Shown here: positions 1 to 36,802 of the stretch, piece by piece | Layout: each line of letters begins with the position of its first letter | Numbering within the stretch: the stretch's first letter is position 1 | Virus record (IMG/VR): IMGVR_UViG_3300022745_000008 | Span: 1 to 44,053 of that record | Strand: one strand, 5' to 3' | Source of the DNA: a virus | Length of the DNA stretch: 44,053 nucleotides | Translations under genes and position numbers: made by a program | The notes under the pieces: model-generated | Told to the model about the DNA's origin: nothing | Databases searched by the model: none | What the model saw: the letters and a program-made list of their open reading frames with translations, nothing else

Positions 1-127
1 AGCACAGGAGAAGCATTGCCGGAAAGGGTTGTGGGTAATTAGTTCTTACCAATTTCATTACTATTCTCGTCGATGAGAGGATCGTAGGCAGGTTCTTCGG
101 GGAAGGTCTCGGTGTCAATTTCGTCTT
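1..127. repeat. Terminal direct repeat, left copy (identical to 43927..44053)
   Basis: Read directly: bases 1-127 match the last 127 bases of the window base for base. The unique unit is therefore 43,926 bp. Confidence 0.95.
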
Positions 128-284
128 CGACAGGGAAGGGTGTGATGTCGTGTTCACCAGAGGGGCCAGAGAGACACTTTTTATTGGTGATGTCGATGAC
201 GTCGCAGTCCTCGGTGTAGCAAGGATCAGGGAGAATGTCGGAGTGGTAGTATTTTTCGGTCTGGGTGTTGAAGATAAGGAACAT
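39..284 (-). CDS. Hypothetical hyper-acidic small protein (81 aa)
   Basis: ATG ORF on the leftward arm with 10 Asp + 10 Glu against 4 Lys and 0 Arg. G-poor leader ACCCACACCCATCATCACCTAT-ATG. No family recognised. Confidence 0.55.
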   Translation of the reverse strand: MFLIFNTQTEKYYHSDILPDPCYTEDCDVIDITNKKCLSGPSGEHDITPFPVEDEIDTETFPEEPAYDPLIDENSNEIGKN

Positions 285-726
285 ATAGGTGATGATGGGT
301 GTGGGTTAAGTGCCCGTCGTTACAGTGACGGAGCCGAGGCTGGGTTTTTTCTTTGGACAGAGACCATTCTGATCTGACTTGCCTTTGCGAGGCTCCTAAC
401 CGGCGTCAGTCTTAACCAGCTTCCGCTTACCGGGAGCCACCACATTGTCAGCAGGTTGCTCAGTCTCTGGAGGATTAAGATTAGTTTAGAAAGCTAATCC
501 TACCCTCAAATCAACACACTGGTCAGGTCGCTCACGCTGTTCCTTGGCTTCCTCGGATTGTTGTGCTGTGAACACTTGATCTGTAAAGCTGTGTGAATCA
601 GTGTCGCATTTCATTTCTGCCTTGGACTTTCGTGCCCTCACTGCAATGTGTTGATTTGAAAGTGCTGGATTCAGTCAGTGATACCAGCTAGCGGAAGCGT
701 TTTCTAGTGATGCTTAGCACAGTGAG
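285..726. other. ORF-free, highly self-complementary intergenic region (candidate structured ncRNA / long structured UTR / origin-like element)
   Basis: No ORF of 60 aa or more in any frame. Perfect 13-bp pairing 506-518/647-659 is nested inside perfect 9-bp pairing 419-427/690-698. Local hairpins at 471-477/495-501, 572-580/597-604 and 664-668/684-688. Strand and function unknown. Confidence 0.4.
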
Positions 727-1374
727 TTAGACCAAACCGCCACCGACAGCAAGCTGGCGATTGAGGTTGATTTCGATCGCGCGAGCAACGCCGAGCTGAG
801 TCCAGCCGCCGAGAGCTTCGAAGTTGTGGCCTGGGTTGAGCGAGGACCAATTGGCAACGAAGGATTCTTCGGTGACGACTTCGCCGTTGGTACCAGCGAG
901 ACCCTGTTCCGCCATGCCGATGATGGAAGCGGCAGCGTCCATGAACTTCTTGGCAGGGGTTTTTTCCTCTTCAGCCTTGGAGACTTCGAAGACGATGGTG
1001 GCACCGATTTCCTGTCCGATGCGCTGATAGTCTTCGGGGGAGATCAGCTTTTCGTCCTGGAGGTAGTCCATGTAGGACTGTTCGGATTCGACTTCGGTGA
1101 CGAGTTCTCCGTTGCGAGCCTTGCGCTGGATGGGGTTCTTGGCAGCGTCGAGCTTGGGGCGACGAGCGATCTTGGTGTGCTCGATCAGGGCTTCAACGAA
1201 GTTCTTGCGGAACTTGTTGTTGATCTTCTGATAGCAGGAGTGACGGATGATCGCGTTGATTAGGTCTGCTTCGGAAGCGATCTGGAGAAAGCCTTCGAGG
1301 GTCGAAGGGACAGTCAGCGGAAACGCGATGCCGAGAGACTTATTGATGACGGTGGTTGTTGCGTAGGATGCCAT
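727..1374 (-). CDS. Hypothetical protein, 215 aa, probably highly expressed
   Basis: ATG ORF with an A/C-rich leader (AACAAAACAAACAAGCAACAAAACCAAACAAA-ATG). No in-phase TTA/CTA/TCA codons across 826-1263, shown by the codon-aligned antisense ORF 826..1263. No family recognised. Confidence 0.75.
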   Translation of the reverse strand: MASYATTTVINKSLGIAFPLTVPSTLEGFLQIASEADLINAIIRHSCYQKINNKFRKNFVEALIEHTKIARRPKLDAAKNPIQRKARNGELVTEVESEQSYMDYLQDEKLISPEDYQRIGQEIGATIVFEVSKAEEEKTPAKKFMDAAASIIGMAEQGLAGTNGEVVTEESFVANWSSLNPGHNFEALGGWTQLGVARAIEINLNRQLAVGGGLV

Positions 1375-1410
1375 TTTGTTTGGTTTTGTTGCTTGTTTGT
1401 TTTGTTAATC

Positions 1411-1496
1411 CCCGAAGGTTTTCGGGAAGGAGGAAAGGTAGCATAACGGGGCAAAAGCGCAAAGGGTTTTTTGGGATGTTTTGCGGTTTTGCTACC
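1411..1496 (-). promoter_or_regulatory. Stem-loops in the leader / intercistronic region upstream of 727..1374
   Basis: Hairpin CCCGAA-GGTT-TTCGGG (1411-1426). A larger hairpin pairs 1451-1463 with 1480-1492 (13 bp, 1 mismatch) and extends by GGTA/TACC (1437-1440/1493-1496). Confidence 0.4.
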
Positions 1497-1515
1497 TTAA
1501 AATGGGTAAAAGGGT

Positions 1516-1914
1516 TTAACCGATTTTGAAAGGGAAGGGTGTGCTGGAAGGGGCTAGCGGAGTGAGGGAGTTGCGGATGGTGTAGAGGAGACGGAGGATG
1601 GAGTCGTTGGCTTTGTGGAGGCCCGCCATAGCGGCGTCGAAGGGGGTGAAGTAGATGTGTTCGAGGGAGGCTTGGAAGGGTGAGGAGAGTTCTTTTACGG
1701 TGACGAGGTAGGAGTAGCGAGAAGCGAGTTGAAAGGGTTCGACGGTGAGGATGGTGAGAACAGAGAGGGATTCTGTAAGGAGGTAGAGTGGGGAGCCGGT
1801 GTGGGTGAGGATGAGATGTTCGCGCTCGCAGTCGGCACAGCGAAAATGTTCGTTGAGGATGGAGGATTGATTGCAGATGGAGCAGGGGGAGCGGGTGGGT
1901 TCGGCGGGGTGCAT
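1516..1914 (-). CDS. Hypothetical protein with N-terminal CxxC...CxxC zinc-ribbon-like motif (132 aa)
   Basis: ATG ORF; N-terminus reads CSICNQ-x11-CADCE. Tightly packed after the helicase gene. Confidence 0.6.
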   Translation of the reverse strand: MHPAEPTRSPCSICNQSSILNEHFRCADCEREHLILTHTGSPLYLLTESLSVLTILTVEPFQLASRYSYLVTVKELSSPFQASLEHIYFTPFDAAMAGLHKANDSILRLLYTIRNSLTPLAPSSTPFPFKIG

Positions 1915-4265: not shown

Positions 4266-4652
4266 TTACAAGCATCCTTCTTTTAGGATGGCTTCTCCGA
4301 CTTTGAAGCCGAAGCCGTGGCCGTAGTAGCCATTGTGACAGTTGAATAGGTGGATGAATTTCTCCGCACCGTTTTTCACAATGCGGAAGATTACCATGCC
4401 GCCCGCGTCGAACTCCGATTCACCGTTCACGAGGTGAAAGTAGGTCGTATCAAAATTCCATCCGGGCATTTCTTCCGGCGTGTCATCAAGAGTGTCTTTG
4501 CGGTTGATACACTTCTCGGTCGGCGCGTCCGCGATGAACCAATCAGCATGTTCGCAGCACGATTGGACGGTGTCATATCCGAGCACTACGTTGTTATCAT
4601 CTACGAAGTTAACCTTCGAGGACCAAGTTTCAGTTTTATTGAATATACGCAT
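4266..4652 (-). CDS. Hypothetical phage protein (128 aa), Cys/His-rich with NCHNGYYGHGFGF motif
   Basis: ATG ORF. The sequence looks like a conserved globular domain, but I cannot name the family with confidence. Confidence 0.65.
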   Translation of the reverse strand: MRIFNKTETWSSKVNFVDDNNVVLGYDTVQSCCEHADWFIADAPTEKCINRKDTLDDTPEEMPGWNFDTTYFHLVNGESEFDAGGMVIFRIVKNGAEKFIHLFNCHNGYYGHGFGFKVGEAILKEGCL

Positions 4653-23051: not shown

Positions 23052-26000
23052 ATGCCCGACTTCCTCACAATCCAGCGCCAGCATGAAGCGGCGAAGCTTA
23101 AAGGTCTTATCGACGAGAACAGCTCATTGGCTGATTTCGCCAAGCTAGGTGCTTTGGCTACGAATGACCCTTCTTACAAGGAGGTTGCAGATTCTCCCGC
23201 GTGGAAGAATATGATTCGCAGTTGGAGTGCAAATGCGGATGAAGCGATTCAAAGTGGTCCAGTTGATGACTGGACTGCTAATGCGTTTGGCTGGGCTGGC
23301 GATAAGTTTGGCGTAACGCCAGAGGTTAGTCGCTCCGCTGGTCGGGAGCTTCCTAGACAATTTTTAAATTTTCTGCCTATGATGGCTGGTGGGACTATTG
23401 GTGGTCTATTAGGCTCTCCAGGAGGCCCTGCAGGCATCGTTGCTGGTGCGGCTAAAGGTGGTTCTATCGGACTAGGCCTTACTTCAGCGCTGTCTGCCTT
23501 CGACGCTTATGGTAAATCTGGGAAGCCCTTAGATGCAATCATTGGCGCTGCGTCTCCATACGTAGGTTCTAAGCTAGCTAGTATGGGCACTTCTGCTGTG
23601 CTTAAAAGCGCTGCTACTCCTGGGAGTCTTTTAAGTCGTGCAGGATTTATGAAGGGTAAAGACTTTCTAAACCCAGCAACTCATTTAGTTACTGATCCTT
23701 TGACTGGAGTTGCTAAGGAGGTGCTAGGAACTTCTGTTGAAGGTGCCACTAATAAAGCTCTAGGATATTTGGGCGGTCAGGTTGCGGCTAATGCAGGTTT
23801 TACAGCTTTGAACCTAGCTGAGCAGGGTCCAGACGCTGTTTTGAATAAAGATTACTTATTTGCGAATTTGGCATCTAATCTGGCCTTCGCAGTAGGAGAC
23901 ATTCCTCGTATGCGAGGTGTTCATTTTGTTGCACCTCCCATTGACAAGCCTCTCGTCCCAACTCAAGAGCAGATTAACGCGGAGAAGACTCGTGGTGAAG
24001 TCACGCAAGAATCCCTTGCGGCGATTGATAATAGTCTTGCAAGGTTCCAAAAGGAAGCCGAACTTGGCGTGGATATTGGTCGCTTTATCGACAAGCACAA
24101 TGCAGTGGCTGCGACTATGGAAGGGCATCGTGCTGCGGTTAATCTTGAGGCCGAAAACTTTAAGTCCACATGGAATAAACTCCGCGAAGTCAATAGTGGT
24201 CTCCCAGATGTTCTCACAGGCATCGACCCTAAAGAGCTTCTTCAGAATCCCTCGGTAATTGGCTTTGACCCAGCTAAAGCGGAAGTGCTGCGCTATGCGG
24301 AGGCGCTGAAGCAGATTAATAAGGTGAAGGGTGGGAATTTGAGCCGTATTGCTAAGAGTGATGCGGATTTGAATAAAGTTATGGGTCTTGTTGAGGAGGA
24401 TCTAAAATTGCCTGATACGCTTCTTAACACTCCAGTTGAGCAGCGCACGGTGGAACAATATCAGAGAGCCCTTGGCACGAAGTTGTCGGATAATGCGATT
24501 AAGCTTATTCGGATGAAACATATGGAGATAGCTCAGGGGGAGAAGTTTGTGCCGGAGTTTCCCAAGCTGTGGGAGGAGTATCAAAAAGCACTGACGACTG
24601 GATTTAGCGGTTCGGTTGATGATAGGTATGAGCTTATTACGGCGAGCTTGCTTGCGAATGGAAGGTTTCCAAAAGTGGTTAGGGCGCAGAAGAAGGTCGT
24701 GAAGCAAGTTGCGGTAGAGGGTCAGACGCAGAACGAAGCGGCTGAAACCGCAATAAAAGCGGTTCAGAGCGTGGCTAAAAAGGACGAGTTGGCTAAAGCA
24801 GTTGAGGCGCGGATGGAGGCTGCAAAGAAGGCGGTAGGTAGTTCTGAAGAGGTGTTCAACAGAAAACGGGCGGAATCTCCAGAATTCAGTGATCAGCGAG
24901 GCATAGACATGCCGCGATTCACTGATGCTGTTATTACTCGTGTAGAAAAAGCACTTGCTGTTGGGGCTGAAGTGACTCTTACTACAGATGGGGGTAAAAA
25001 AGTAATTCCTATTGTTGCTGTAAAGCAAGGCATGATGCGCGACGCTGAAGGTAATGGATGGGGCACTTTGGCTGCTATAGCAGATTATAAGGGAGAGATT
25101 AAAATTAAATCAAAAGTGTCCACTAAAACGCCAAAGCTTGGTAGGCCTACTGGACCTTCTAAGGCTATGGTAGATAAAACTACTGCGGTGGAAGAACGGA
25201 TTACTCTAGCCGGTAAGGCATTGAAGCCTACGGATGAGGATCGCTTTTTTCTTATCGCCAGCCAGATGATTGATCCCGCACATCGTGCTAAGGGATTGAG
25301 CTGGATGCATAAAGTGGCTACTGAGCACGCGCCGCTTCCCCTTGCGCAGAAGCTGCTTAAGTTTCAAGCGGGTTTGAAAACTCTTGATGAGCGTGTTGAA
25401 GCCAGTAATCAGCTTAAAACAGTGCCCTTGAAAGAGGAGGTTACTCCAGATGCCGTAGCTGAGATAGAAGCCGCTATGACAAGAGATGAAGAAATTCGCG
25501 TTGCAGCTAGTGAAGAGGCGATGCAAGAATTGATTGTCGATGAGGTTTCTAACGAGCTTGATGAAGTTCCTGAGATTAGTCAGTCGCAGCAGGATCAAAA
25601 GCTGGCTAGTGATTTCATGGTCGCACTGGCGAAAAAAGCTGGCGTGGAAATTAGTCCCGCTGACGCGGCGAGAAGGTTTGCAAACATGCCACTAAGTGTA
25701 CGTGAGAAGAATCTTGCCTTGGCAAAGCAATGGAAAGATAAAGGATTTCCACAGTTGGCGACTAGGGATATTGATCCGTTGACGATTCACTTTACTACTG
25801 GTCAGCCGCTTCCTATTAAGGAATTTGCCACCGCGTGGGCGAGAGAGGCTGGTGTGCCAGAAGCTGAGATTCCAGCCGTTGTGGAGGACTTCGTCAAGAT
25901 CACGCAGTATTTTGCTGCGGGAGAGGCGAGGTTTGGGATTATCGAAGGTTTGGATAAGAACGGGGCTCAGTTCGCGCAAGGCTTCCGTCCAGCAGTGAAA

Positions 26001-29000
26001 CTTGGCGATCGTGTTGTTGAAGCTCCTACGCACCTTCAAGCGTGGGAAAAACTCTTCGGAAAGACCTACGATAAGTTTGGCCCAGCTGAAACTGTGCAGA
26101 TGAAAGACTCTGTGTTGAAGGAAGGGTTTATTACTGAGAATGGATTTAGGAATCGTAAAGAGGCTTTAACTGATTTCCAAGCCAAGGGTGGTAAGATGAA
26201 TCTTACTCCAGGAGAAAAGAGAGACTGGCTCGATTCGAGTGATATTCGTTTTGCTAGAGCTTCTGCTGGTGCGTTTGACTTTGGAATGAGGGAAGTTCTG
26301 AATGGGCAGATTCAGCGCCCTGGTAAGCCTCCGCTTGGGACTAAAGATGGTTGGATGCAGGAGCTTGATTTCCGAAATAATGCAGGTGTGCATAATGGCA
26401 TTCTGCAAAAAGCTGAGGTGGAGTTTTATAAAGAACTTGTGCCGGAGGCGTTTAAGGACGGTAAGGTGCATTTGCAGAAACTTTGGGATGGACTAAATAA
26501 GGTGGGGGAGAGTGTGAAGGTGGGTGTTTATGGGCAAGAAAACAGTGTTCACCCAGATAAGCAAAAACTTGATGCTTTACATCACAGCTGGTGGGAAACA
26601 CTTACCCAGCCTATTAGAGATAGACTAGCTCGTGGAGAGTTTTCAGGTCTCAATGCGGATACCGTTGCTAAATATAAAGAGTTTGACGCACTACGCGAGC
26701 GAGATTATAGAGGTGAGTTTGACGTTAAAAACTCTGGCCCTCGCGCCACTTCCTACTACAACCAAATCTCCGCGAAGCCAAAATTCAAATGGACTGACAA
26801 CCAAGGTCGTGAGTGGGATTCAAGTCCTTTTCGTATAGACATTGTTGGAACACAAGGAGCAGAAGGACCGTCGGATGCCTTGCACACACCACTTGGTGGT
26901 CGCACTTACGGTTGGGCAATGATTCAAATTATTCCTGACCCAAAAACTAATGAGCCTATTTTGTTTGTGGGAGAGCAGCAGAGTAAGTGGGGGCAACAAG
27001 CGCACAAAGAAGGTATAAAACAAGGTTTGCCTCCCGCGCGTAATTTTGATGCTTACGCAACGGAAAAGGGTTTGACTGAAGCTCAGATTGAACAAGCCTG
27101 GGAAAGTCAAAGAACGGACAAGCCAGAACAAGTATTTGTTGATTGGCAAAAAGAACACGAAGATCGTCAGGCCGATAACTACCGTCGTGTTCAAGGCCAC
27201 CCCCTCCTAGATCTCCAACACGCCCTCGTTCTCAAAGCCGTCATCCGCGAAGCTCAAAAGCGCGGAGTGAAGAAGGTTGTGGTGAGTGATGGGGAGAGTG
27301 CGATGATGACGCAGGAGCATGATAAAGCGGCAGAGCCTTCAGAAATAAAAATTGGGCCGCCGATAAAGCTTGCAGGGGCGGGTAGCCAAGCAATTCAAAA
27401 AGCTGGCTATAAACCTACGCACCAGCATTTTTGGTCAACAGATATTTGGAGTAAAGACGGAAAACTTTTTAAAGGCTACTCAACGTTTGATGGAACTTTT
27501 GTTCAGGAAGTTCAGTTAGGCTCACCTAAACCTCTCCAAGAAGGCGGTATGCGTCTCCACTACGACACCACCCTGCCTTCAGTGATGAAGAAGCTCACAG
27601 GCAGTGAAGGAGAAATGTGGGATGGTGGGGTGCATAAGAACGCTCAGCAATGGAATCGCGCAGAGACTCGTGGAGATAACTTTAATGTTCTGGAGAATGA
27701 CGGTTCTTTATGGGCAAGCTTTTCCACACGAGCGGAAGCACAAGCTGAAGTAACCAGAATGAATAATGCTGGGAATAACTTTACTTTACAAGATAATAGA
27801 GGCCAGTTAGGCTCCCCCGTATTTCGCAACCCTGACGGCACTCCCAAATCCTCCGTCACTGGACGCGTCTATGATATCTCAAACCCATCCGATCGAGTTA
27901 ATACTCTATTCGCCCAGGGTGGAACTATCTATGGAGCCGCCTTCAAAAATCTAGCTCAAGCATATTTCTCCACTAAAGCGTTTCAAGGCACGGGTAAAAC
28001 CAAAGCCATGAGCTACGTCCTTGCTCACGAAATGGGCCATATCGCTTTTGGCAAAGCCATGCGTGGGGAGTATGGTCCGGAAACTAAACAACTCTTCGAC
28101 GAAGCTCACGCGTGGGTAAAGACGAATGACCCACAGGTCTTGAAAGACGTGGAAGAAGTAATTCATGACCTTTACTTGCCGAAAGAGTTTAGGAATCTTA
28201 ACGGCGTGAAGGACGTGCTGGGTAATTCTGATCCTGAAGAGTGGCTTGCAAACGCTCACGCAATGATGGTGACTGGGGCGGTTGAGGCGAGGAAGCCGAT
28301 TAAGGCGTTGTTGATTTTGCCTAAGCCGATTCGGGAGATTGTGGAAAATACAATTCGTCGCATCCAGGATGGTTTGAAGTCTGCGCGGATGTATTGGAAA
28401 CTTAGTGGTGATAGCGACAAAATGAATCAGGTTCTTCGTGTGAAGGACATGATGGATTCTGTGCGTCGTCAATTCCGCGAGGCTGAATGGCAGAAAGCTC
28501 AGGCGATGGAGTTCTTGAATGTCGATCCGGCTGGCTTGCTGGATAGGATGGATAATGCTCAGTTTGCGAGAAGCATTTACGGAGCTGATACGATCAAGTC
28601 CAAAGTTGGCGGCTTTTTCAATAACGCAGTTCAAGGATTGTCGGATTTCATGGCGACGTATAAGTCGTTCCAGGAACCTGGACTAAAACTGCTTCATGCT
28701 GAAAGGTCTATTAAAGGACAAGTTGCTGAATCTTTGACACCGATTTTCGGACATCAGGGTGCCACGGGGAATATCGTAGTGGATAAATCCATGCCTTGGT
28801 TCAAGCTGGCTAATAGTAAGCCCTTGTATGAATTAGTCAAGAAGATCAATCTCGAAGCACAGGATTCTAATCAGAGCGTGATTGTTCAAAATCAGGATGG
28901 GACGATCAGCTTTAACTGGGCCGCAATGACTCCAGAATCGCGTGCTACTGTTAAACTACATACTCCAGAAAATCAGAAAGCAATGGCACAGTTTTTGATT

Positions 29001-31607
29001 CAGAAAGAGCAGTCGACTAAGATTACTCAAAGGGATAACGTCCTTCATGAGGAAGCTAGTGCTAGAGGTATGATGGCAAATTTACTGTTAAAAGTGAAAA
29101 GCTTCAACGACAAAGCTACGCCTGAAATCCGCTTTCAAGATGCTCGTGTTGTTTCCGGTCAGATATTTGATGCAATTAAATCAGGGGATCAAGCTGCGCT
29201 GCAGAGTGTTGTGAGCAAGTTTTCTAACCCTTCCGAAGCGCAGAAGGTGATCACTATTGCTCAAGAAAAAGCTAAGAAGCTCGACGAGTTGACTAAGTTC
29301 TACGCTGATCGTCCAAACTTCCAGAGTCTTCGTAGGTTTAAGCCGATTCTCCAGCGGTATATTAATCCTAACGGAGATAAGGTCATGCTGGACTTTAACA
29401 AGGCGGAAGAAGCTTCTGCCAAGAGAAAAGAGCTTGAGGCTAAAGGATGGAAAGTAGAGGGTGATCCGATTATTCGTGATTTGTCTAAGCATAAGGATGA
29501 GATGACTTTAGACTCAAAAATTGTGGAGCTTTTGGATACCAAAGAGCAAAAGCTAAAAGACACAATTGCATCATTGGATATTGATCCTGAAGATCGGCAG
29601 GCTCTGATGGAGGAAAGCTCTTTCCTAGCTGACGTGCTACGGGAATCTAAGAGTAACGACATTTATCTTCCTGGAGTTAAGCGTAGAGTCTCCGGTGGTC
29701 CAGAGCACTTGGACATGCTTGAGCAGCATCTTACTTATACTCAAGCCGCGCATAAGGCAGGATATATGAAAGCCTTAGGACAAGAAATCCGATATTTCAT
29801 GAACAGCCCAGAGCTTGTTAATCAAGTTCGGGAGAAGCAGCAGTTTCTTGAGTTCTACAACCAAGCCAAAACACCTGATCTAAAGTTCTGGAGAATGGTA
29901 AACAAAGCCAATGCAGTATGGCATATTGGCTGGAATCTTCCTGGGCACTTGGCTGAACTTTTCCAACCAATTCAAACTCATATTCATGAGGCTGTCGCTC
30001 AAGGGCATTCAATGCTTACAGCGCTTAGAGCTACTGTTGGTGCAGAGAAATCTGCTATGGCGGCGGTGGGTAAAATGATAAAATCCAAGATTGGTTATCA
30101 AGACTCCGAAGCCATCTGGGAACATTGGAGCGATAAAGATGAGGCAGATATGCTTAAAACCAACTGGCCTCGGAATCTTCAACAACCGCTTCAGGAAGTG
30201 TATCAGCAAGTAGGTGTGAATCAAGAAACCCTCCGCGCCATTGTTGAAGACCGTGAAATGCCTTCTCCGTCAAAGATGTTGACCAAGGCGGCGAATATGT
30301 ATAGCAACGCCGCGATGGGAGTTTACTCGGTGTTTACTCAGCACAACGCGCTAGTGGGATTGTTGACTGGATATAGGCTTGCAAAGAAGAAAGGTCTGAG
30401 TCACGCTGAGGCTGTGAAACAGGCTGAGCTTTTCGAGCTTGCAGTGAATAACTCGGCTGGGAGACTGGAAAGGCCAGCGTATTTTAATAAGCTTGGTGGT
30501 GCTGGATACATGGTCTATGCACTGTCGAGTTATGTGCGTGGGCGGTTTAGCCAGCTTGCGAGGTATTATCGCCACGGGTTTGATAAGGTTAATTTTCCAG
30601 AGTTAAACCAGCAGGATCGTCGCGCTGCAAGACAGGCGTTTGCGTCGATGATTGCAGGGCAGTTAGCTGCGGCTGGGATTCTTGGTTTCCCCTTTGTGGG
30701 AGCTGGGATCGCGCTGATGGAAGATTTGACGGGCGATGAGATTAAAGGTAATGGGTTAAAAGCTCTGAATGAGATTACAGACGACCCATTGCTAACGCAG
30801 GCTATAAGCTATGGAGTGTTCTCCTCGATGGCTGAAAGTTTGGGTATTCCTGCGGATTTGCACTCAAGGTTCGCGCTTGGCGGGTTTATGGGGATCAACT
30901 CGTATGACGGTGTCAGCGCGGCGAGTGTACTTGGGCCAACTGCGAGCATGGTGAATTCGATGTGGAAGATGGGTAAGACCTTGACTCAGGAGCATGACCT
31001 TAATGCTGCGTTCAGAGCTGGAGGCCCTGGTGGAATTAAGCGTATGGCTGAGGCTTTGAGTGAAGACTTCCAAGGGCAGAATCCAGATGTAAACTTGCCT
31101 ATGGCTATGGCAGGGTTTAGGTCTGGAAAGATGTTCAAGGCGAAGGAGATGGAAAGGATCATTAGTAAGACTAACGAAGCCGCACAGAGAGATATGCAGG
31201 TGGCGGCTAAACGTGTGGAGGAAAGCTTGCTCCTTGGGCCGCAGGTTGCGCAGGCAACATTGATGCGCGAGGCGAGCCAGCTGATTGATCAGAAGCTGGA
31301 AGGCAGGGGGAGACAGCTTGCGCTGAGGGATATGATGAATAATCTGCGGCAGAGAATCGCTTTGCAAGAAGTGAAAAAGCAAATGCCGTCTGACTTACGT
31401 GGTAAAGCCACGGGTCAAACGGCATCGAGGATTTCAGAGATTGCAAATGCGGTGGGATATCAACCGCCGCCTGCTGGAACTATGGAGCAGGAGCAGATCA
31501 TGCGCCATGTTTATTCGCAGCTAGGTGGCGTCCGCTCTCCACAAAGTATGTTGACGGCGAGGAGGAGACAAAGCGCTTTGGAGATGAATCCGATAGGGTT
31601 TTATTAA
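23052..31607 (+). CDS. Giant virion-associated multidomain protein (2851 aa) with a zincin HExxH motif; internal/ejection polyvalent-type protein (tape-measure-like role not excluded)
   Basis: Uninterrupted 8,556-nt ORF. Gly/Ala-rich hydrophobic N-terminal region (about aa 100-290). HEMGH at aa 1659-1663 (nt 28026-28040). C-terminal hydrophobic Gly-rich segments (AAGILGFPFVGAGIALMEDL) and LHSRFALGGF, which recalls PLxRFG-type proteins (from memory). Confidence 0.7.
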   Translation: MPDFLTIQRQHEAAKLKGLIDENSSLADFAKLGALATNDPSYKEVADSPAWKNMIRSWSANADEAIQSGPVDDWTANAFGWAGDKFGVTPEVSRSAGRELPRQFLNFLPMMAGGTIGGLLGSPGGPAGIVAGAAKGGSIGLGLTSALSAFDAYGKSGKPLDAIIGAASPYVGSKLASMGTSAVLKSAATPGSLLSRAGFMKGKDFLNPATHLVTDPLTGVAKEVLGTSVEGATNKALGYLGGQVAANAGFTALNLAEQGPDAVLNKDYLFANLASNLAFAVGDIPRMRGVHFVAPPIDKPLVPTQEQINAEKTRGEVTQESLAAIDNSLARFQKEAELGVDIGRFIDKHNAVAATMEGHRAAVNLEAENFKSTWNKLREVNSGLPDVLTGIDPKELLQNPSVIGFDPAKAEVLRYAEALKQINKVKGGNLSRIAKSDADLNKVMGLVEEDLKLPDTLLNTPVEQRTVEQYQRALGTKLSDNAIKLIRMKHMEIAQGEKFVPEFPKLWEEYQKALTTGFSGSVDDRYELITASLLANGRFPKVVRAQKKVVKQVAVEGQTQNEAAETAIKAVQSVAKKDELAKAVEARMEAAKKAVGSSEEVFNRKRAESPEFSDQRGIDMPRFTDAVITRVEKALAVGAEVTLTTDGGKKVIPIVAVKQGMMRDAEGNGWGTLAAIADYKGEIKIKSKVSTKTPKLGRPTGPSKAMVDKTTAVEERITLAGKALKPTDEDRFFLIASQMIDPAHRAKGLSWMHKVATEHAPLPLAQKLLKFQAGLKTLDERVEASNQLKTVPLKEEVTPDAVAEIEAAMTRDEEIRVAASEEAMQELIVDEVSNELDEVPEISQSQQDQKLASDFMVALAKKAGVEISPADAARRFANMPLSVREKNLALAKQWKDKGFPQLATRDIDPLTIHFTTGQPLPIKEFATAWAREAGVPEAEIPAVVEDFVKITQYFAAGEARFGIIEGLDKNGAQFAQGFRPAVKLGDRVVEAPTHLQAWEKLFGKTYDKFGPAETVQMKDSVLKEGFITENGFRNRKEALTDFQAKGGKMNLTPGEKRDWLDSSDIRFARASAGAFDFGMREVLNGQIQRPGKPPLGTKDGWMQELDFRNNAGVHNGILQKAEVEFYKELVPEAFKDGKVHLQKLWDGLNKVGESVKVGVYGQENSVHPDKQKLDALHHSWWETLTQPIRDRLARGEFSGLNADTVAKYKEFDALRERDYRGEFDVKNSGPRATSYYNQISAKPKFKWTDNQGREWDSSPFRIDIVGTQGAEGPSDALHTPLGGRTYGWAMIQIIPDPKTNEPILFVGEQQSKWGQQAHKEGIKQGLPPARNFDAYATEKGLTEAQIEQAWESQRTDKPEQVFVDWQKEHEDRQADNYRRVQGHPLLDLQHALVLKAVIREAQKRGVKKVVVSDGESAMMTQEHDKAAEPSEIKIGPPIKLAGAGSQAIQKAGYKPTHQHFWSTDIWSKDGKLFKGYSTFDGTFVQEVQLGSPKPLQEGGMRLHYDTTLPSVMKKLTGSEGEMWDGGVHKNAQQWNRAETRGDNFNVLENDGSLWASFSTRAEAQAEVTRMNNAGNNFTLQDNRGQLGSPVFRNPDGTPKSSVTGRVYDISNPSDRVNTLFAQGGTIYGAAFKNLAQAYFSTKAFQGTGKTKAMSYVLAHEMGHIAFGKAMRGEYGPETKQLFDEAHAWVKTNDPQVLKDVEEVIHDLYLPKEFRNLNGVKDVLGNSDPEEWLANAHAMMVTGAVEARKPIKALLILPKPIREIVENTIRRIQDGLKSARMYWKLSGDSDKMNQVLRVKDMMDSVRRQFREAEWQKAQAMEFLNVDPAGLLDRMDNAQFARSIYGADTIKSKVGGFFNNAVQGLSDFMATYKSFQEPGLKLLHAERSIKGQVAESLTPIFGHQGATGNIVVDKSMPWFKLANSKPLYELVKKINLEAQDSNQSVIVQNQDGTISFNWAAMTPESRATVKLHTPENQKAMAQFLIQKEQSTKITQRDNVLHEEASARGMMANLLLKVKSFNDKATPEIRFQDARVVSGQIFDAIKSGDQAALQSVVSKFSNPSEAQKVITIAQEKAKKLDELTKFYADRPNFQSLRRFKPILQRYINPNGDKVMLDFNKAEEASAKRKELEAKGWKVEGDPIIRDLSKHKDEMTLDSKIVELLDTKEQKLKDTIASLDIDPEDRQALMEESSFLADVLRESKSNDIYLPGVKRRVSGGPEHLDMLEQHLTYTQAAHKAGYMKALGQEIRYFMNSPELVNQVREKQQFLEFYNQAKTPDLKFWRMVNKANAVWHIGWNLPGHLAELFQPIQTHIHEAVAQGHSMLTALRATVGAEKSAMAAVGKMIKSKIGYQDSEAIWEHWSDKDEADMLKTNWPRNLQQPLQEVYQQVGVNQETLRAIVEDREMPSPSKMLTKAANMYSNAAMGVYSVFTQHNALVGLLTGYRLAKKKGLSHAEAVKQAELFELAVNNSAGRLERPAYFNKLGGAGYMVYALSSYVRGRFSQLARYYRHGFDKVNFPELNQQDRRAARQAFASMIAGQLAAAGILGFPFVGAGIALMEDLTGDEIKGNGLKALNEITDDPLLTQAISYGVFSSMAESLGIPADLHSRFALGGFMGINSYDGVSAASVLGPTASMVNSMWKMGKTLTQEHDLNAAFRAGGPGGIKRMAEALSEDFQGQNPDVNLPMAMAGFRSGKMFKAKEMERIISKTNEAAQRDMQVAAKRVEESLLLGPQVAQATLMREASQLIDQKLEGRGRQLALRDMMNNLRQRIALQEVKKQMPSDLRGKATGQTASRISEIANAVGYQPPPAGTMEQEQIMRHVYSQLGGVRSPQSMLTARRRQSALEMNPIGFY

Positions 31608-34342: not shown

Positions 34343-36802
34343 TTAGATTTCTCCAATTCGGTTGTCTTCACCAGTGTGATACCAAGAGTGCCCGTAACCA
34401 CCGTCGTAGGGGATTACGATGTTTTCGTTGGCTACTGTGATTCGGTTATCGAAGTAGGAGGCGATTTTGTTGCAGGCCCATTCGGCGAGTTCGATGGGGA
34501 ATTGACCGCAAAGGGCGTCGTGGACAGAGTGGATGGGTTCTATGATGAGGGAGTTGTTGGCACGACGGTTTTCAGGGTCTTGCCATAGGCGTTGCATGGC
34601 GAGGTTAGTGACATAGGTGGTATTGGCTTGGGGTTCATGGGCAAGTGCTGTGCGAATGGTTGTGCCGTCTTCTGGGCGACCAAAAAATTTACGCACGTGA
34701 CCGGAAGCGCATGGGAGCGAGCGGCCGTTTTTGAGTTGGTGTTTGACATAATCTTGATAAGCTCGAACACCGTGATAGCGTTCGAAGTAAAGGGCTTGGA
34801 CGATCTTGCATTCCTGTGGAGGAACGTGCATGAGGGAGAAGCCTTCACTATGGGTGAAGTTCTTTTCAAGTAGGTTTTCAGACATGCGCACTGGTTGCAT
34901 GTCGTAGTTGGAGCCGTGTTGCACGACTTTGCAAACACCGTAGAGGGTATCTGGAATTTTGGTGGATTTAATTAAAGCTTTGATTTCATCGCGGGAAAGT
35001 TTGTTGATGGATTTGGAAACGTGTGGGAGTTTACCTTCACGCTGAAGTTGCATGAGGGCAAGTACTTTGGCGGGCTTGATCTTAGCGTAGTAGTCCTCGA
35101 TCATGGTGGAGTCGCCAAGCGCCGCGCAGTGAGCGGCTACTGTCCAACCGTCTGCACCTTCGAGGTCGCATTGGAAGAAGTATTTTCCTTCGTCAGCGAG
35201 ATAGAATTTGCGGTTCTCTTTAGAGATGGTTTGAAGGTTAGTGCCGGAGCCTGTAGTGGATTGTGCGCAGGACAAGCGGCCAGTGTCAGCACCGACAGGA
35301 TTGTAAGAACAGCGGATGCGACCGTCGGGATCGCGGTAGACTTCAAGTTGTTTGGCCTTGCCTTCGATCTTTTTCCAGGATAGAAGATTGATGAGAAATG
35401 GATGGGCGCGGGTTCCTTGAGAGACAACGAGTTTAAGCAGAGCTCCTTTGTCAGCGGTGAGAGTTGAGGTCTTTCTGCCGGCTTCTTTTTTGAATTGCTT
35501 TTCAAAACCGAACTCGTGGTAAAGCGTTTTGATAAGTTGTGGTGCGGAGTTGAGGTTGACAGGGGCGGAGGTGTGAAGGTTGCAAGCGTCTTGGAGTTCG
35601 TTTTGTTGGGAGCGCAGCTCTGCGAGTCGGTGGTTAGAGCCCTCAATGTCGTAGCGGAAACCACGAAGGGACATGTATTGTAGGGGTTCGATGAGGGAGA
35701 CGTTGAAGTCATAATGTTTGCGTTGGGCAGAATCCATTGCGCGCATGTGGGCTTGATGGATTTCTAGGGTAACCGCGGCATCCTTGCAGCAGTAACGATA
35801 GTGTGTGTCTTTGTCGTCAACGGTGCGCTCGAATTTGTAGTAGGGTTCTTCTGTCCAGATAGATGCTTGAGTGCCAAGACCTTTGGGGAGTTCTGGATAG
35901 ATTTCCCACCCAGAAAACATGGTATCGTGGGCGATGTTATTGATGGGACAGCGGAAGTGCCAGGCTAGAGCGGTGTAGTCGTAGAGTCCGTTCTGGAGGA
36001 CCTTTGGGATGCTGCTGTCTCCCAGGACTTCTGCAAGTCTGTGTAAGACACGTTGCAAAGTGCTGACGTCATATAACTCGAAGGGGATGATGAAAGCACT
36101 GCTGGGGTCGATTGAGATTGAGCAGCACGTGATGCCATTTCTAAATTTATACTCAACTTTGGCAGCACGCTCATTAGGTATTCCACCTTCGATGTCCAAT
36201 GAGACAAGGGGTTTAGTAATAAGAATTTGGTCCAGCCTAGCAATGATCTCGTTTGGTGATAAGTTGATTTCCAACTTTCTCTGCGGGAGACGTAGTTCAG
36301 GGAACTTACTCTGAGCCACAGCGCGGTTGAGATCGTGCATAAAAAGTGGCATGTCATCATAAGATTGGAAGAGGTAGGTGGGATGGAAGGTGGCGACGCA
36401 TTTGTATTTATCGTTGAAACCAGAGAAGATGGAACCTCGGAAAGAGTTGAGGGAGTGATGGATGCCTGCCGCTTTGAGGGCAAGGTCGCCAAGAAGAAGT
36501 ACGCAGTTGGGTTGGAACTGAGCTAGGTCTTGGCGGAGTTGTGCTAAACCGTCCTGAATATCTGGGCCGTCGAACATGAAGAACGAGGACTGACCACCGC
36601 CAGAAGGAGGTTGCGAGCGACAGATGTTAGAGACAAAGCAGTTGGCTCGCATGATGCCAGCACGCGCTAGGGCTTTCTCAAGATACATGAGGTTTGGCCC
36701 CGCGAAGGGACGAGAGGAAGAAGTCTCATGGCTTCGTGGGAAGTCGCCTACAATGGCGAGACGGTGCTCAGATGGAATGGAAGGGAATTCAGCGGAGATC
36801 AT
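34343..36802 (-). CDS. Family A DNA polymerase with 3'-5' exonuclease and an N-terminal family-4 UDG-like domain (819 aa)
   Basis: UDG-like: LAIVGDFPRSHETSSSRPFAGPN...CFVSNICRSQPP and ATFHPTYLF. Exonuclease: LVSLDIEGG, NGLYDYTAL, YCCKDAAV. Polymerase: CDLEGADGW (A), KVVQHGSNYDMQP (B), HSVHDAL (C). Confidence 0.85.
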   Translation of the reverse strand: MISAEFPSIPSEHRLAIVGDFPRSHETSSSRPFAGPNLMYLEKALARAGIMRANCFVSNICRSQPPSGGGQSSFFMFDGPDIQDGLAQLRQDLAQFQPNCVLLLGDLALKAAGIHHSLNSFRGSIFSGFNDKYKCVATFHPTYLFQSYDDMPLFMHDLNRAVAQSKFPELRLPQRKLEINLSPNEIIARLDQILITKPLVSLDIEGGIPNERAAKVEYKFRNGITCCSISIDPSSAFIIPFELYDVSTLQRVLHRLAEVLGDSSIPKVLQNGLYDYTALAWHFRCPINNIAHDTMFSGWEIYPELPKGLGTQASIWTEEPYYKFERTVDDKDTHYRYCCKDAAVTLEIHQAHMRAMDSAQRKHYDFNVSLIEPLQYMSLRGFRYDIEGSNHRLAELRSQQNELQDACNLHTSAPVNLNSAPQLIKTLYHEFGFEKQFKKEAGRKTSTLTADKGALLKLVVSQGTRAHPFLINLLSWKKIEGKAKQLEVYRDPDGRIRCSYNPVGADTGRLSCAQSTTGSGTNLQTISKENRKFYLADEGKYFFQCDLEGADGWTVAAHCAALGDSTMIEDYYAKIKPAKVLALMQLQREGKLPHVSKSINKLSRDEIKALIKSTKIPDTLYGVCKVVQHGSNYDMQPVRMSENLLEKNFTHSEGFSLMHVPPQECKIVQALYFERYHGVRAYQDYVKHQLKNGRSLPCASGHVRKFFGRPEDGTTIRTALAHEPQANTTYVTNLAMQRLWQDPENRRANNSLIIEPIHSVHDALCGQFPIELAEWACNKIASYFDNRITVANENIVIPYDGGYGHSWYHTGEDNRIGEI

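Follow-up and report, generated by a model that had tools for sequence, protein, structure and literature searches.

A 162-nt minus-strand segment in a noncoding gap of the window (the whole 44,053-nt stretch analyzed) probably specifies a structured RNA of a widespread phage family, carried within a leftward early/replication transcript. This family is not catalogued in Rfam 15. We regard its structure, strand, family membership, and phage and tRNA-cluster context as established, and we infer its function. On the minus strand, the segment reads as an arm, a CA bulge, two covarying pairs, GAGGGCAC, an apical domain, GUGAGCGACCUG, and a second arm (Table 1). It carries every feature of what we propose as the "CA-bulge / GAGGGCAC-GUGAGCGACCUG" hairpin RNA family, defined by a 5' arm, the CA bulge, two pairs, GAGGGCAC, an insert, GUGAGCGACCUG, the partners of the two pairs, and a complementary 3' arm, in the same orientation as the flanking genes. 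The motif is single copy in the window, and this segment is its sole member there. The preliminary description of the gap had suggested a structured RNA of no known family, a suggestion that is supported and made more precise here, with its size, strand, and modularity revised.

Table 1. Features of the gap and its flanks (positions in the window)
Feature	Position	Strand	Remarks
Complete structured-RNA element	502..663	-	162 nt; closing helix, internal-loop core, variable apical domain
5' arm of closing helix P2 (ACUUUCAAAUCAACACAUUG)	644..663	-	Pairs with 502-521
"CA" bulge, 5' strand	642..643	-	2 nt; invariant in all 38 aligned members
Two covarying pairs, GU here	640..641	-	Pair with 522-523 (AC)
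5' core half GAGGGCAC	632..639	-	Identical throughout clade
Variable apical domain	536..631	-	96 nt; includes 42-codon ORF
3' core half GUGAGCGACCUG	524..535	-	Conserved core
3' arm of closing helix P2 (CAGUGUGUUGAUUUGAGGGU)	502..521	-	Pairs with 644-663
P1, extended hairpin GCUGG..CCAGC	664..688	-	Abuts 5' arm; 38 nt past stop of 215-aa gene
P3 hairpin GGAUUAG-CUUUCUAAA-CUAAUC	472..500	-	Directly past 3' arm; energy prediction only
Block B' CCAGAGACUGAGCAACCUGCUGACAAUGUGGUGGCUC	433..472	-	Near-identical in 9 clade loci
B' hairpin GAGCAACC/GGUGGCUC	434-461	-	12-nt loop
Block A' CAGCCUCGGCUCCGUCACUGUAACGACGGGCAC	310..343	-	Near-identical in 8 clade loci; ends 25 nt before ATG of 81-aa gene
A' hairpin CCGUC/GACGG	314-331	-	8-nt loop; candidate stem, all variants in loop
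Upstream neighbor	727..1374	-	215-aa protein, function without assignment; linked to element in window's phage clade only
Downstream neighbor	39..284	-	81-aa small ORF; variable "cargo" gene of intergenic island
Short ORF in gap	320..445	-	41 aa
Short ORF in gap	486..641	-	51 aa, GTG start; 42 codons from ATG at 614
Short ORF in gap	593..691	+	32 aa

The helix that closes the element was first seen as a perfect 13-bp pairing of 506-518 with 647-659, for which a chance expectation of about 1e-3 had been estimated. The pairing is present, and none of 3,000 shuffles of the region contained a perfect 13-bp inverted repeat, in agreement with that estimate. A repeat search extended the match to 16 nt at 94%, and with G·U pairs included the 13 bp form the center of a 20-bp helix (644-663 with 502-521) that is fully paired on the minus strand only. 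Every non-Watson-Crick state in the helix is a G·U on the minus strand and would be an A·C on the plus strand, which places the RNA on the minus strand only. Positions 502 to 688 folded at -60.1 kcal/mol on the minus strand (z = -3.85; 0 of 200 shuffles) and gave a z of -1.68 on the plus strand, and z values for the whole 442 nt were modest (-1.81 on the minus strand and -0.80 on the plus strand). The minimum-free-energy fold of the minus strand over 502-688 is the same structure that covariation supports. An RNA on either strand had been allowed for; the signal is found only on the minus strand, that of the flanking genes. A single RNA of ~290 nt, closed by a 9-bp pairing of 419-427 with 690-698, had also been drawn. 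This outer pairing is present but at chance level, since 19% of shuffles hold a perfect 9-bp inverted repeat, and neither of its arms has a counterpart in any related locus; the unit is instead the 162-nt element plus a separate hairpin.

Compensatory substitutions in the closing helix are abundant in relatives, both within the phage clade of the window and across the family. The preliminary description had named their absence, or an intact protein gene in homologues, as grounds against an RNA; neither was found, an outcome that favors an RNA. Among 15 distinct clade sequences, 98.7% of helix cells are paired, three pairs are doubly compensated (A-U/G·U/G-C, C-G/U·G/U-A, and U-A/C-G), and the covariation score was matched by 1 of 500 shuffles. 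Beyond the clade, 34 unrelated family members have arms that are wholly different in sequence and still complementary. The outer arms of the clade are kept even where the inner RNA is of another type (L004, L006/L080, and L105/L109/L121), which suggests that the arms are under some further constraint. Breaks in several assemblies fall at the arms of the element.

Family members were sought by an exact match to the two core halves, GAGGGCAC and GUGAGCGACCUG, whose invariance beyond the clade is therefore by construction, followed by a strict test for the CA prefix and paired xy positions. The exact core was found in at least 119 metagenome stretches, with 37 of the 119 checked passing the strict test, and in 64 IMG/VR stretches, where at least 37 of 54 new loci passed; a relaxed scan of 0.5 Mb of shuffled sequence returned no match. 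Closing stems of the members are mutually unrelated in sequence and range from 5 to 26 bp, most from 5 to 13 bp, compared with 20 bp in the window. In an alignment of 38 distinct members, all 10 variable pairs change on both sides and 97.0% of cells are paired, versus 69% in shuffled alignments and at most 44% with partners slid, and the covariation score (0.716 versus 0.166) was reached by none of 500 shuffles. On the core strand, 34 independent stems hold 335 Watson-Crick pairs, 34 G·U, 5 A·C, and 1 other. L105 has two copies in one genome; their cores are identical, whereas the second differs in its apical domain and has a wholly different 20-bp stem. A covariance model with a shortened apical loop (R1) was discarded, as it was unable to span long inserts and gave only noise in the window.

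The CA bulge, invariant in all 38 aligned members, lay outside the search pattern. The two pairs that follow it occur as GU/AC, GC/GC, UC/GA, UU/AA, and AU/AU, with counts of 21 GC, 14 UA, 2 AU, and 1 UG at the first position and 23 CG, 12 UA, and 3 UG at the second. The inner pairing had first been read as CAG/CUG with AC bulged out; covariation in the family overturned this, showing y'x' to be the partner of xy and CA to be the bulge. Within the clade, GAGGGCAC is unchanged even where the neighboring protein is at 35 to 44% identity. RNAalifold independently recovered the same core; it predicts pairs of AGG with CCU and CAC with GUG, invariant in all members, and a G opposite AGCGA in an asymmetric purine-rich loop. 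Altogether, ~22 nucleotides of the element are invariant. Inserts across the family span 35 to 202 nt and are unrelated in sequence even between close relatives, and the apical domain of the window has no homologue in any fetched locus. The hairpin at 572-580/597-604 and the short direct repeats described earlier lie inside this domain and accordingly lack comparative support. In one subfamily (L020/L111/L118/L119/L297), RNAalifold placed 10 compensatory pairs within a shared apical domain.

Family-bearing contigs are 4 to 97 kb long, sometimes with two copies per genome, and most members have same-strand ORFs close by, both upstream and downstream. Nine of 13 flanking ORFs scanned match PHROG families (exonuclease, TerL, primase, HNH, methyltransferase, and RecE-like); the scanned ORFs share no homology with one another, and neighbors are unrelated across the family. 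Same-strand tRNA genes lie near 7 of 37 metagenome members (within 600 nt) and 6 of 37 IMG/VR members (within 300 nt). The element forms the whole spacer between two tRNAs in L187, a tRNA begins 0 to 19 nt past it in L265 and L234, and a tRNA-like gene starts at the last four bases (GGGU) of its 3' arm in L112 and L119. In relatives, tRNAs flank the element and never overlap its core; neither ARAGORN nor the Rfam tRNA model detected a tRNA or tmRNA in the window itself. In L180 the element lies between split TerL ORFs, which raised the idea of an intron; a separate 84-aa ORF follows, however, and no intron model matches, and we dropped it.

The gap at 285-726 lies in the replication-gene arm, flanked on the minus strand by the 215-aa gene 727..1374 and the 81-aa gene 39..284. 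It had been described as free of ORFs, and we likewise found no credible gene, only short ORFs (Table 1), and no homologue with an intact gene at this position. Taken literally, the statement that no frame holds an ORF of 60 aa or more fails, since a 75-aa ORF with a GTG start, 150..377(+), crosses the left edge; it starts outside the gap and is antisense to the 81-aa gene. The 215-aa protein had no match in Pfam, PHROG, or PDB, and its AlphaFold model (pLDDT 80) returned no informative Foldseek match. The element follows its homologues (33 to 81% identity) in all loci except L110; outside the clade the gene and the element are not linked, and the idea of a partner protein was dropped. In L003 and L006, homologues of the 81-aa protein (MKYLLY...) are encoded between blocks A' and B'; in L004, the homologue is flanked by the hairpin element and B'. 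Several relatives lack the gene. Neither a sigma-70-type promoter nor an intrinsic terminator was found in positions 1 to 1600, consistent with an internal operon position of the element. BLAST searches of window positions 1 to 1500 and of three other family members against GenBank phages gave no match, and the PolA of the window is at most 26% identical to that of cultured phages. An attempt to link the window to a host or prophage through a 17-mer of the 3' arm was abandoned: 58 genome-contig matches, against ~140 expected by chance, included none with the partner arm near.

Judged by comparison of related loci, the gap is a set of several independent modules, with P1, P3, A', and B' separate from the core element. 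Both hairpins noted earlier, at 664-668/684-688 and about 471-477/495-501, are present. All clade members have a hairpin where P1 lies, and its stem changes in a compensatory manner among them (GGAAGG/CCUUCC, GGUGG/CCACC, GAGCA/UGCUC, GGGC/GCCC, and GCAGG/CCUGC); two subgroups have a predicted H-type pseudoknot with an A-rich loop 3, and the window and L085 have a plain extended hairpin. This hairpin or pseudoknot stays with the 215-aa gene even in L110, which is without the long helix. The earlier suggestion of a long structured 3' untranslated region of 727..1374 therefore holds in part, for this post-gene structure. A general rule of a hairpin abutting the 5' arm was rejected, as one was seen in 27% of members and 35% of control positions. 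At the P3 position, a hairpin is predicted in most relatives, with differing stems and a loop that is often YUNNUAAA(C).

Blocks A' and B' are each conserved over ~35 nt, occur alone as well as together, and vary in their order with the other gap modules of relatives (ABCD, BACD, ACD, and BCD), where the same noncoding island also carries tRNA genes. Exact 18-mers recovered 21 IMG/VR stretches for A' and 31 for B'. It is possible, if rather doubtful, that these two blocks act as double-stranded DNA signals (promoters or operators) driving the small ORFs and tRNA genes that follow, and not as RNA structures. They are near-perfect over ~35 nt across phages whose proteins are at 35 to 44% identity; unrelated small ORFs (window, L003/L006, L015, and L020) have their start codons 7 to ~25 nt past A', and B' is followed by a tRNA gene within 5 to 52 nt in at least seven loci (5 to 9 nt in several). 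B' stem variants show no consistent strand preference, so that this block may act as RNA or as DNA. However, neither block matches a sigma-70 consensus, and each is present in a single copy in the 44-kb window, where it precedes no other gene. The ORFs scanned include no identified phage RNA polymerase, compensatory changes preserve a perfect 8-bp stem (GGACAACC/GGUUGUCC) in the B'-like copy of L105, and A' is similar to the 5' half of the RNA core and B' to its 3' half. A repeated genome-wide phage promoter was rejected because the block motifs are confined to the gap region of the window, and a virion RNA polymerase using hairpin promoters was rejected after the 2,851-aa ORF showed no PHROG, Pfam, or PDB similarity. 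The blocks do not form a second closed copy of the fold either: no A'-B' pairing is supported by variants, and the relaxed scan misses both.

For the core element, we favor an RNA-processing or punctuation module or a stable noncoding RNA. Within the reading of the element as a structured phage RNA, a processing or punctuation signal is a tentative choice. In such a scheme, the closing helix would place the 3' terminus of the RNA that lies upstream (an mRNA with P1 at its end here, a tRNA in other phages) beside the 5' terminus of the next cistron or tRNA. The invariant loop would either cleave the RNA itself or recruit a universal host RNA enzyme, the transcript would be cut at the base of the helix, and the products would be a hairpin-protected upstream mRNA and a released hairpin RNA. 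Since hairpins abutting the 5' arm are not generally enriched, the protected 3' end would apply to some clades only. More speculatively, and with a low likelihood, the CA bulge and the GAGGGCAC/GUGAGCGACCUG loop might form the active site of small RNAs of a new class, able to cleave themselves or to catalyze another reaction, with which phages punctuate tRNA arrays and polycistronic transcripts; the apical domain would then be dispensable periphery or released cargo.

Alternatively, though we think it unlikely, the element may act in trans as a stable small RNA of ~100 to 170 nt, excised by RNase P at the downstream tRNA or by other nucleases, whose loop binds a conserved host protein or complex and whose apical domain tunes or targets it (e.g., as a decoy or sponge). 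A constant core beside differing genes would suit such an RNA, as would its place among tRNA genes, which bound it exactly in some phages, the structural selection on the apical domain of one subfamily, the two L105 copies that differ in stem and apical domain, and the precedent of stable RNAs in the tRNA cluster of phage T4. Nevertheless, we saw no promoter or terminator of its own in the window and no co-occurring partner protein gene, and apical domains that are unrelated in close relatives, two of them with ORFs (L085 and the window), would be odd for a specificity domain. Less probable still is a cis-regulatory leader (a riboswitch, operator, or processive antiterminator) that would bind a protein or small ligand and control translation or transcription elongation of the next cistron. 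Members in L149, L180, L184, L194, L220, and L225 do end ~20 to 70 nt before the next start codon, and the element is co-oriented with the next ORF; the downstream genes are nonetheless unrelated (primase, exonuclease, HNH, methyltransferase, unknown proteins, and tRNAs), no conserved expression platform (a terminator or sequestered ribosome-binding site) is present, and in the window the next ORF is 217 nt on, behind two other modules.

We consider it very improbable that the element acts as DNA, whether as an origin of replication or packaging, as a 20-bp inverted-repeat site for recombination or inversion, or as an insertion resembling a miniature inverted-repeat transposable element (MITE). 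Near-identical clade arms around unrelated inserts, together with the assembly breaks at the arms, would fit frequent recombination, and the gap lies in the replication-gene arm. Yet the stems hold 34 G·U and only 5 A·C states, and every clade polymorphism passes through G·U on one strand, an asymmetry that double-stranded DNA sites do not have. Family members keep the internal core and differ in their arms, the opposite of what terminal inverted repeats (TIRs) or recombinase sites would show, and the inner segment has the same orientation in 26 of 26 clade sequences. The earlier suggestion of a MITE with 13-bp TIRs fails on these grounds and on its single copy, and no direct repeat (target-site duplication) flanks 502-663. 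Nor does an origin with iterons find support: the direct repeats are weak, two-copy, and not conserved in relatives, no A+T-rich stretch suited to unwinding was noted, and cumulative GC skew rises monotonically through the region without a turn. No recombinase, integrase, transposase, or reverse transcriptase was identified among ~30 ORFs scanned, a set that leaves out several of at least 90 aa, and retron, diversity-generating retroelement, integron, inversion, and integration models were set aside on the same scan. Finally, a decayed or unannotated small protein gene (the 42/51-codon ORF 486..641) is hardly credible, despite an ATG 17 nt past the 5' core and a 70-codon ORF in the same slot of L085, as the shortest members have inserts of 35 to 43 nt without a start codon, the window and L085 ORFs cross the 3' core in different frames (sequences read by eye), conservation is at the nucleotide level with compensatory pairs and not in a pattern of third-codon-position variation, and no homologue carries an intact gene at the same position.

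To our knowledge, very few RNA folds are common to soil, sediment, freshwater, and marine phages and yet independent of any gene. Known ones, such as tRNAs and small ribozymes, proved functionally important and useful as tools. Dozens of verified members came from one exact-match query here, and a profile search would probably yield many more. If the element does process RNA, it would account for the separation of mRNAs and tRNAs in these phages without the usual signals and would offer a processing tag that is both compact and programmable; binding to a universal host factor would instead point to a new route of host takeover. The clade pattern of identical arms and blocks around unrelated inserts and small ORFs is a concrete case of cassette exchange in phage noncoding DNA.

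The preliminary description had recognized no known RNA family in the gap, and comparison with Rfam 15 (4,227 covariance models) agrees: the whole window gave no match at gathering thresholds, and 39 related or family loci gave only tRNAs and one Hammerhead_II (type II hammerhead), located elsewhere in the relative L019. Permissive searches at an E value of 10 or less (window 250-760, five loci, and the shortest member, with a 35-nt insert) returned chance-level matches only, none with E under ~0.08 and all scoring far short of gathering, and a literature search for the core sequence string found only unrelated primers. Among phage structured RNAs that are not tRNAs, T4 species 1 and 2 RNAs are stable, co-transcribed with tRNAs in the tRNA cluster, and unassigned in function, and phi29 pRNA joins its two ends in a helix that bears a functionally essential small bulge. 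The element resembles these in its kind and in its size range of ~120 to 170 nt but shares no sequence or model similarity with them, the Rfam pRNA model included, and contigs of 4 to 97 kb with sometimes two copies are a poor fit to the packaging RNA of one phage group. PeSLs of T4-type phages, each an early promoter plus a stem-loop, are mobile regulatory cassettes: short, strongly conserved noncoding blocks that flank unrelated cargo ORFs in a hyperplastic region of related phages, a pattern that implies shuffling of cassettes through recombination at the blocks. The window clade is similar in that its arms and A'/B' blocks stay constant around changing inserts and ORFs, and it differs in having no promoter consensus and in an element that is defined by RNA covariation and extends far beyond one phage group.

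Long helices with an internal loop also join the flanks of looped-out segments in the RNase III hairpins of phage T7 early mRNA and in the stalks of rRNA operons. The 20-bp helix of the window, 98.7% paired in the clade, is long enough to be such a substrate (about two turns, at least 20 bp, of mostly Watson-Crick pairs). However, RNase III sites need no sequence-specific core, and stems as short as 5 bp (5 to 11 bp in other members) exclude RNase III as the general enzyme of the family. A kink-turn consists of a C stem, a 3-nt bulge 5' of tandem sheared G·A/A·G pairs on the same strand, and an NC stem. We rejected this assignment after inspecting the consensus by eye: the sole tandem GA option (GAGGG/GCGAC) has its unpaired nucleotides 3' of the GA, the opposite polarity.

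HDV-like ribozymes run from a cleavage site 5' of P1 through P2, P3, P1.1, and P4, with the catalytic C in J4/2. Their fold, a nested double pseudoknot, needs P1 at the very 5' terminus, whereas the outermost helix of our element joins both ends. In L187, L181, and L265 this helix begins or ends at a tRNA, with no upstream P1 strand, and no HDV-family model matched at an E value of 10 or less, and an HDV-like or theta ribozyme was rejected. Even so, the theta and minimal HDV-like ribozymes of phages offer a likeness: they are small structured RNAs of uncultivated phages, often beside same-strand tRNAs, whose helices covary, whose invariant nucleotides are few, and whose peripheral helix varies in length, and a role in tRNA and transcript end processing has been proposed for them (Nat Commun 2024, PMC10879173). 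Our family is likewise found in uncultivated phages and next to tRNAs, with an invariant core, covarying helices, and a variable periphery. Similarly, it shares with the hammerhead, twister, hatchet, and pistol classes, which are enriched in phage and metagenome data, some 20 invariant nucleotides in a loop or bulge, helices kept in pairing and not in sequence, and a wide spread over unrelated phages with no fixed protein partner. It differs from these small ribozyme classes in giving no Rfam match and in its core, which has, for example, no CUGANGA...GAAA. Overall, an invariant loop, covarying helices, and a variable periphery make a design that appears compatible with a self-cleaving ribozyme.

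The intergenic gap between the genes for the 215-aa and 81-aa proteins (window 285-726) contains a structured RNA element on the minus strand (502-663), a member of a widespread, previously uncatalogued phage RNA family. As the preliminary description held, the gap has no credible gene, only short ORFs, and its 13-bp inverted repeat (506-518/647-659) is present; a perfect 13-bp repeat arose in 0 of 3000 shuffles. The 9-bp pairing around it (419-427/690-698) also exists, but one of that length was found in 19% of shuffles. The fold of the whole 442 nt is ordinary (z of -1.81 on the minus and -0.80 on the plus strand), whereas positions 502-688 fold on the minus strand at -60.1 kcal/mol (z of -3.85, 0/200 shuffles) and reach a z of only -1.68 on the opposite strand. 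The observation was essentially right, and so was the idea that the region encodes a structured RNA.

IMG/VR and other assemblies contain homologues of the 215-aa protein (33 to 81% identity). BLAST of the gap against these loci returned four blocks of ~35 nt, A to D, that are 90 to 100% identical, while proteins fall to 35 to 44%. Blocks C and D always occur together, directly after the 215-aa gene, with 35 to 202 nt of unrelated sequence between them; A and B are optional and differ in order. In the gene direction, D′ pairs with C′ in a helix of 20 bp, ACYYUCAAAUCARCAYAYUG with CAGURUGYUGAUUUGARGGU, in which 98.7% of cells are paired across 15 distinct clade sequences. Three positions show two-sided changes (A-U/G.U/G-C, C-G/U.G/U-A, and U-A/C-G), and a fourth varies among U.G, U-A, and C-G. 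All 29 wobble cells are G.U on the minus strand and would be A.C on the plus strand, where, by arithmetic from the clade counts, pairing would drop to ~89%. This comparative evidence identifies the C/D pair as a minus-strand RNA helix. Given five clade members, RNAalifold recovered the same architecture unaided, with 10 compensatory pairs in their shared apical domain. The apical domain of the window has no relative in any fetched locus, so the inner hairpins, direct repeats, and 42-codon ORF listed earlier are without comparative support; the ORF is not conserved, since the shortest family inserts are 35 to 43 nt and lack a start codon.

A second copy in one relative, L105, retains the inner sequences within a completely different, perfect 20-bp stem; the inner sequences alone were therefore used as the search query (GAGGGCAC, a gap of 37 to 97 nt, GTGAGCGACCTG). 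A metagenome scan returned at least 119 stretches, against an estimated ~100 chance matches in such a collection, and many are G+C-rich coding DNA without pairing. Among the matches listed, however, 37 share three features outside the query: an invariant CA immediately upstream, a dinucleotide that pairs with the two nucleotides after CCUG (GU/AC, GC/GC, UC/GA, UU/AA, or AU/AU), and complementary arms of 5 to 26 bp with unrelated sequences. The same pattern found 64 stretches in IMG/VR; 37 of the 54 new loci passed the strict test, and most of the remainder also have the CA prefix. The relaxed test gave 0 matches in 0.5 Mb of shuffled sequence. When 38 distinct members were aligned over the core and 8 bp of arm, each of the 10 variable pairs showed two-sided changes, and 97.0% of cells were paired, compared with 69% after shuffling and at most 44% with partners slid. 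The covariation score was 0.716 versus 0.166, with 0/500 shuffles reaching 0.716. The 34 independent stems contain 335 Watson-Crick, 34 G.U, 5 A.C, and 1 other pair, a result that fixes the functional strand as the one carrying GAGGGCAC...GUGAGCGACCUG, the window minus strand.

Features of the element, its flanking modules, and neighboring genes (window coordinates; primes denote blocks read in the gene direction)
Feature	Position	Strand	Remark
215-aa gene	727..1374	-	upstream neighbor of gap; no assigned function
P1 hairpin	664-688	-	plain extended hairpin, abuts 5′ arm
Block D	632-664
5′ arm	644-663	-	pairs with 3′ arm
CA bulge	642-643	-	invariant in family
GU pair positions	640-641	-	pair with AC at 522-523
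5′ core half GAGGGCAC	632-639	-
Apical domain	536-631	-
3′ core half GUGAGCGACCUG	524-535	-
Block C	498-538
3′ arm	502-521	-
P3 hairpin	472-500	-
Block B (B′)	433-472	-
Block A (A′)	310-343	-
81-aa gene	39..284	-	downstream neighbor of gap; ATG at 284

Within the core, AGG is predicted by energy models to pair with CCU, and CAC with GUG, so that G faces AGCGA in an asymmetric loop rich in purines; these predicted pairs do not vary across members. Every clade member has the P1 hairpin directly next to the 5′ arm, and its stem sequences show many compensatory differences; in two subgroups P1 takes the form of an H-type pseudoknot, the third loop of which is A-rich. Such pseudoknots (S1 and S2 covarying), for example [ACAG]UUUC{GGUGGG}UU[CUGU]AAAAA{CCCACC}, lie just after the 215-aa gene in L007, L013, L015, L019, L110, L111, L118, and L119 and also in L003, L004, L105, L120, and L121; L110 has one without the long hairpin, and none matched Rfam.

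Block B′ contains a hairpin (GAGCAACC/GGUGGCUC) whose loop is 12 nt and whose stem has one purine-purine mismatch; a copy of the hairpin is retained in L105 with a different, perfect stem; the A′ hairpin has 5 bp and an 8-nt loop. Further IMG/VR contigs carry B′ in 31 stretches and A′ in 21. A tRNA follows B′ by 5 to 52 nt in at least seven loci, and A′ ends 7 to ~25 nt before start codons of unrelated small ORFs. B′ resembles the 3′ half of the main core and A′ its 5′ half; no evidence of pairing between the two was found, and B′ stem variants disagree on strand. The two blocks may function either as RNA hairpins or as signals in the DNA. Another block, CCAGAGAUUUGCUGAUCCCACUGGNCAAAGGGACUGCC, lies downstream of the element in L111, L298, L105, and L085 and is absent from the window; like B′, it begins CCAGAGA.

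Most members have same-strand ORFs close on both sides; 9 of 13 scanned match PHROG phage families (exonuclease, terminase, primase, HNH, methyltransferase, and RecE-like) and are unrelated to one another. A same-strand tRNA lies near about one-sixth of members: in L187 the element occupies the whole interval separating two tRNAs, and a tRNA starts 0 to 19 nt past the 3′ arm in L265 and L234. In relatives from the window's own clade, the same intergenic island, which follows the 215-aa gene, holds tRNA genes, tRNA-like sequences, and more conserved blocks (L003 6240-6319; L007 2736-2820; L105 4047-4132 and ~4427-4592; L112 3863-3934; L298 after B′). Island tRNAs measure 80 to 90 nt, and their anticodon calls are odd; a gene scored as tRNA-like at 29.6 bits begins within the element's 3′ arm, and a ~166-nt tRNA-like RNA in L105 includes a B′-like hairpin. 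Variable cargo genes nearby (L298 1991-2362; L119 3992-4570; P0018 contig) include a Tad4-family protein (PF25186) and an RNase_T/DEDD exonuclease. Two ORFs encode the large terminase subunit in L180 (2866-4801): one of 280 aa for the N-terminal ATPase and one of 226 aa that matches phrog_27743. Between them sit the RNA element and a further ORF of 84 aa, and intron models gave no match.

One conserved stem appears to have received different RNAs by exchange: the same outer 19- to 20-bp stem encloses wholly different inner RNAs in L105 (3737-3887), L109 (3744-3935), L121 (2990-3136), L006/L080, and L004, one type combining a GCCC-GAAA-GGGU tetraloop hairpin with a GACCU/AGGUC hairpin. Since clade arms are kept even where the inner RNA is of another type, and inserts differ among close relatives, the arms probably serve as recombination handles for cassette exchange as well. 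Contigs L005, L012, L081, and L085 stop at conserved arms or only a few bases away from them, probably as assembly breakpoints at blocks common to co-occurring strains rather than genome termini.

The window represents the 44-kb genome of a lytic-type phage. A plus-strand block encodes small and large terminase subunits, portal, major capsid protein, tail-fiber protein, and, downstream of the head and tail-fiber genes, a 2851-aa ORF (23052-31607) without a match in PHROG families, Pfam families, or PDB sequences. The minus-strand arms encode replication genes: primase, ATP-dependent ligase, a ParB/methylase fusion, AAA_24 ATPase, PD-(D/E)XK nuclease, HNH endonuclease, UvrD-like helicase, and PolA, a single 819-aa ORF (34343-36802, minus strand) joining a family A DNA polymerase to an N-terminal uracil-DNA-glycosylase (UDG)-superfamily domain. 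Scans of ~30 window ORFs, a set that excludes several ORFs of at least 90 aa, revealed no reverse transcriptase, integrase, or RNA polymerase. Unlike the islands of its relatives, the window contains no tRNA, all of them having been lost. The PolA sequence shares at most 26% identity with those of cultured phages, and the window DNA matches none of them; judged by sequence, this phage is remote from cultured phages. Neither a sigma-70-type promoter nor an intrinsic terminator was seen in window 1-1600, consistent with an element that lies inside an operon.

Given an invariant core, no conserved protein neighbor, phages of many environments, and placement between cistrons or tRNAs, we infer that the core loop either has catalytic activity or interacts with a universal RNA enzyme or factor of the host. 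We favor a role in RNA processing or punctuation, in which cleavage at the helix base would part upstream RNA from the downstream cistron; the main rival reading is a small, stable RNA directed at a host target. An RNase III site as a general role is ruled out by the many stems of 5 to 11 bp. Strand asymmetry, a constant core with variable arms, and the lack of iterons or of a GC-skew change conflict with an inversion site and with the origin and MITE alternatives raised earlier. As for known RNAs, Rfam 15 returned no family match at gathering or permissive thresholds, even for the shortest member, in agreement with the preliminary description; an HDV-like fold is ruled out by the lack of room for a 5′ P1, and a kink-turn, on inspection, by the wrong polarity. 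Elsewhere in its genome, one relative of the window phage carries a type II hammerhead ribozyme (L019 8813-8877, minus strand; 40 bits, gathering score 37), so self-cleaving RNAs do occur in this phage group.
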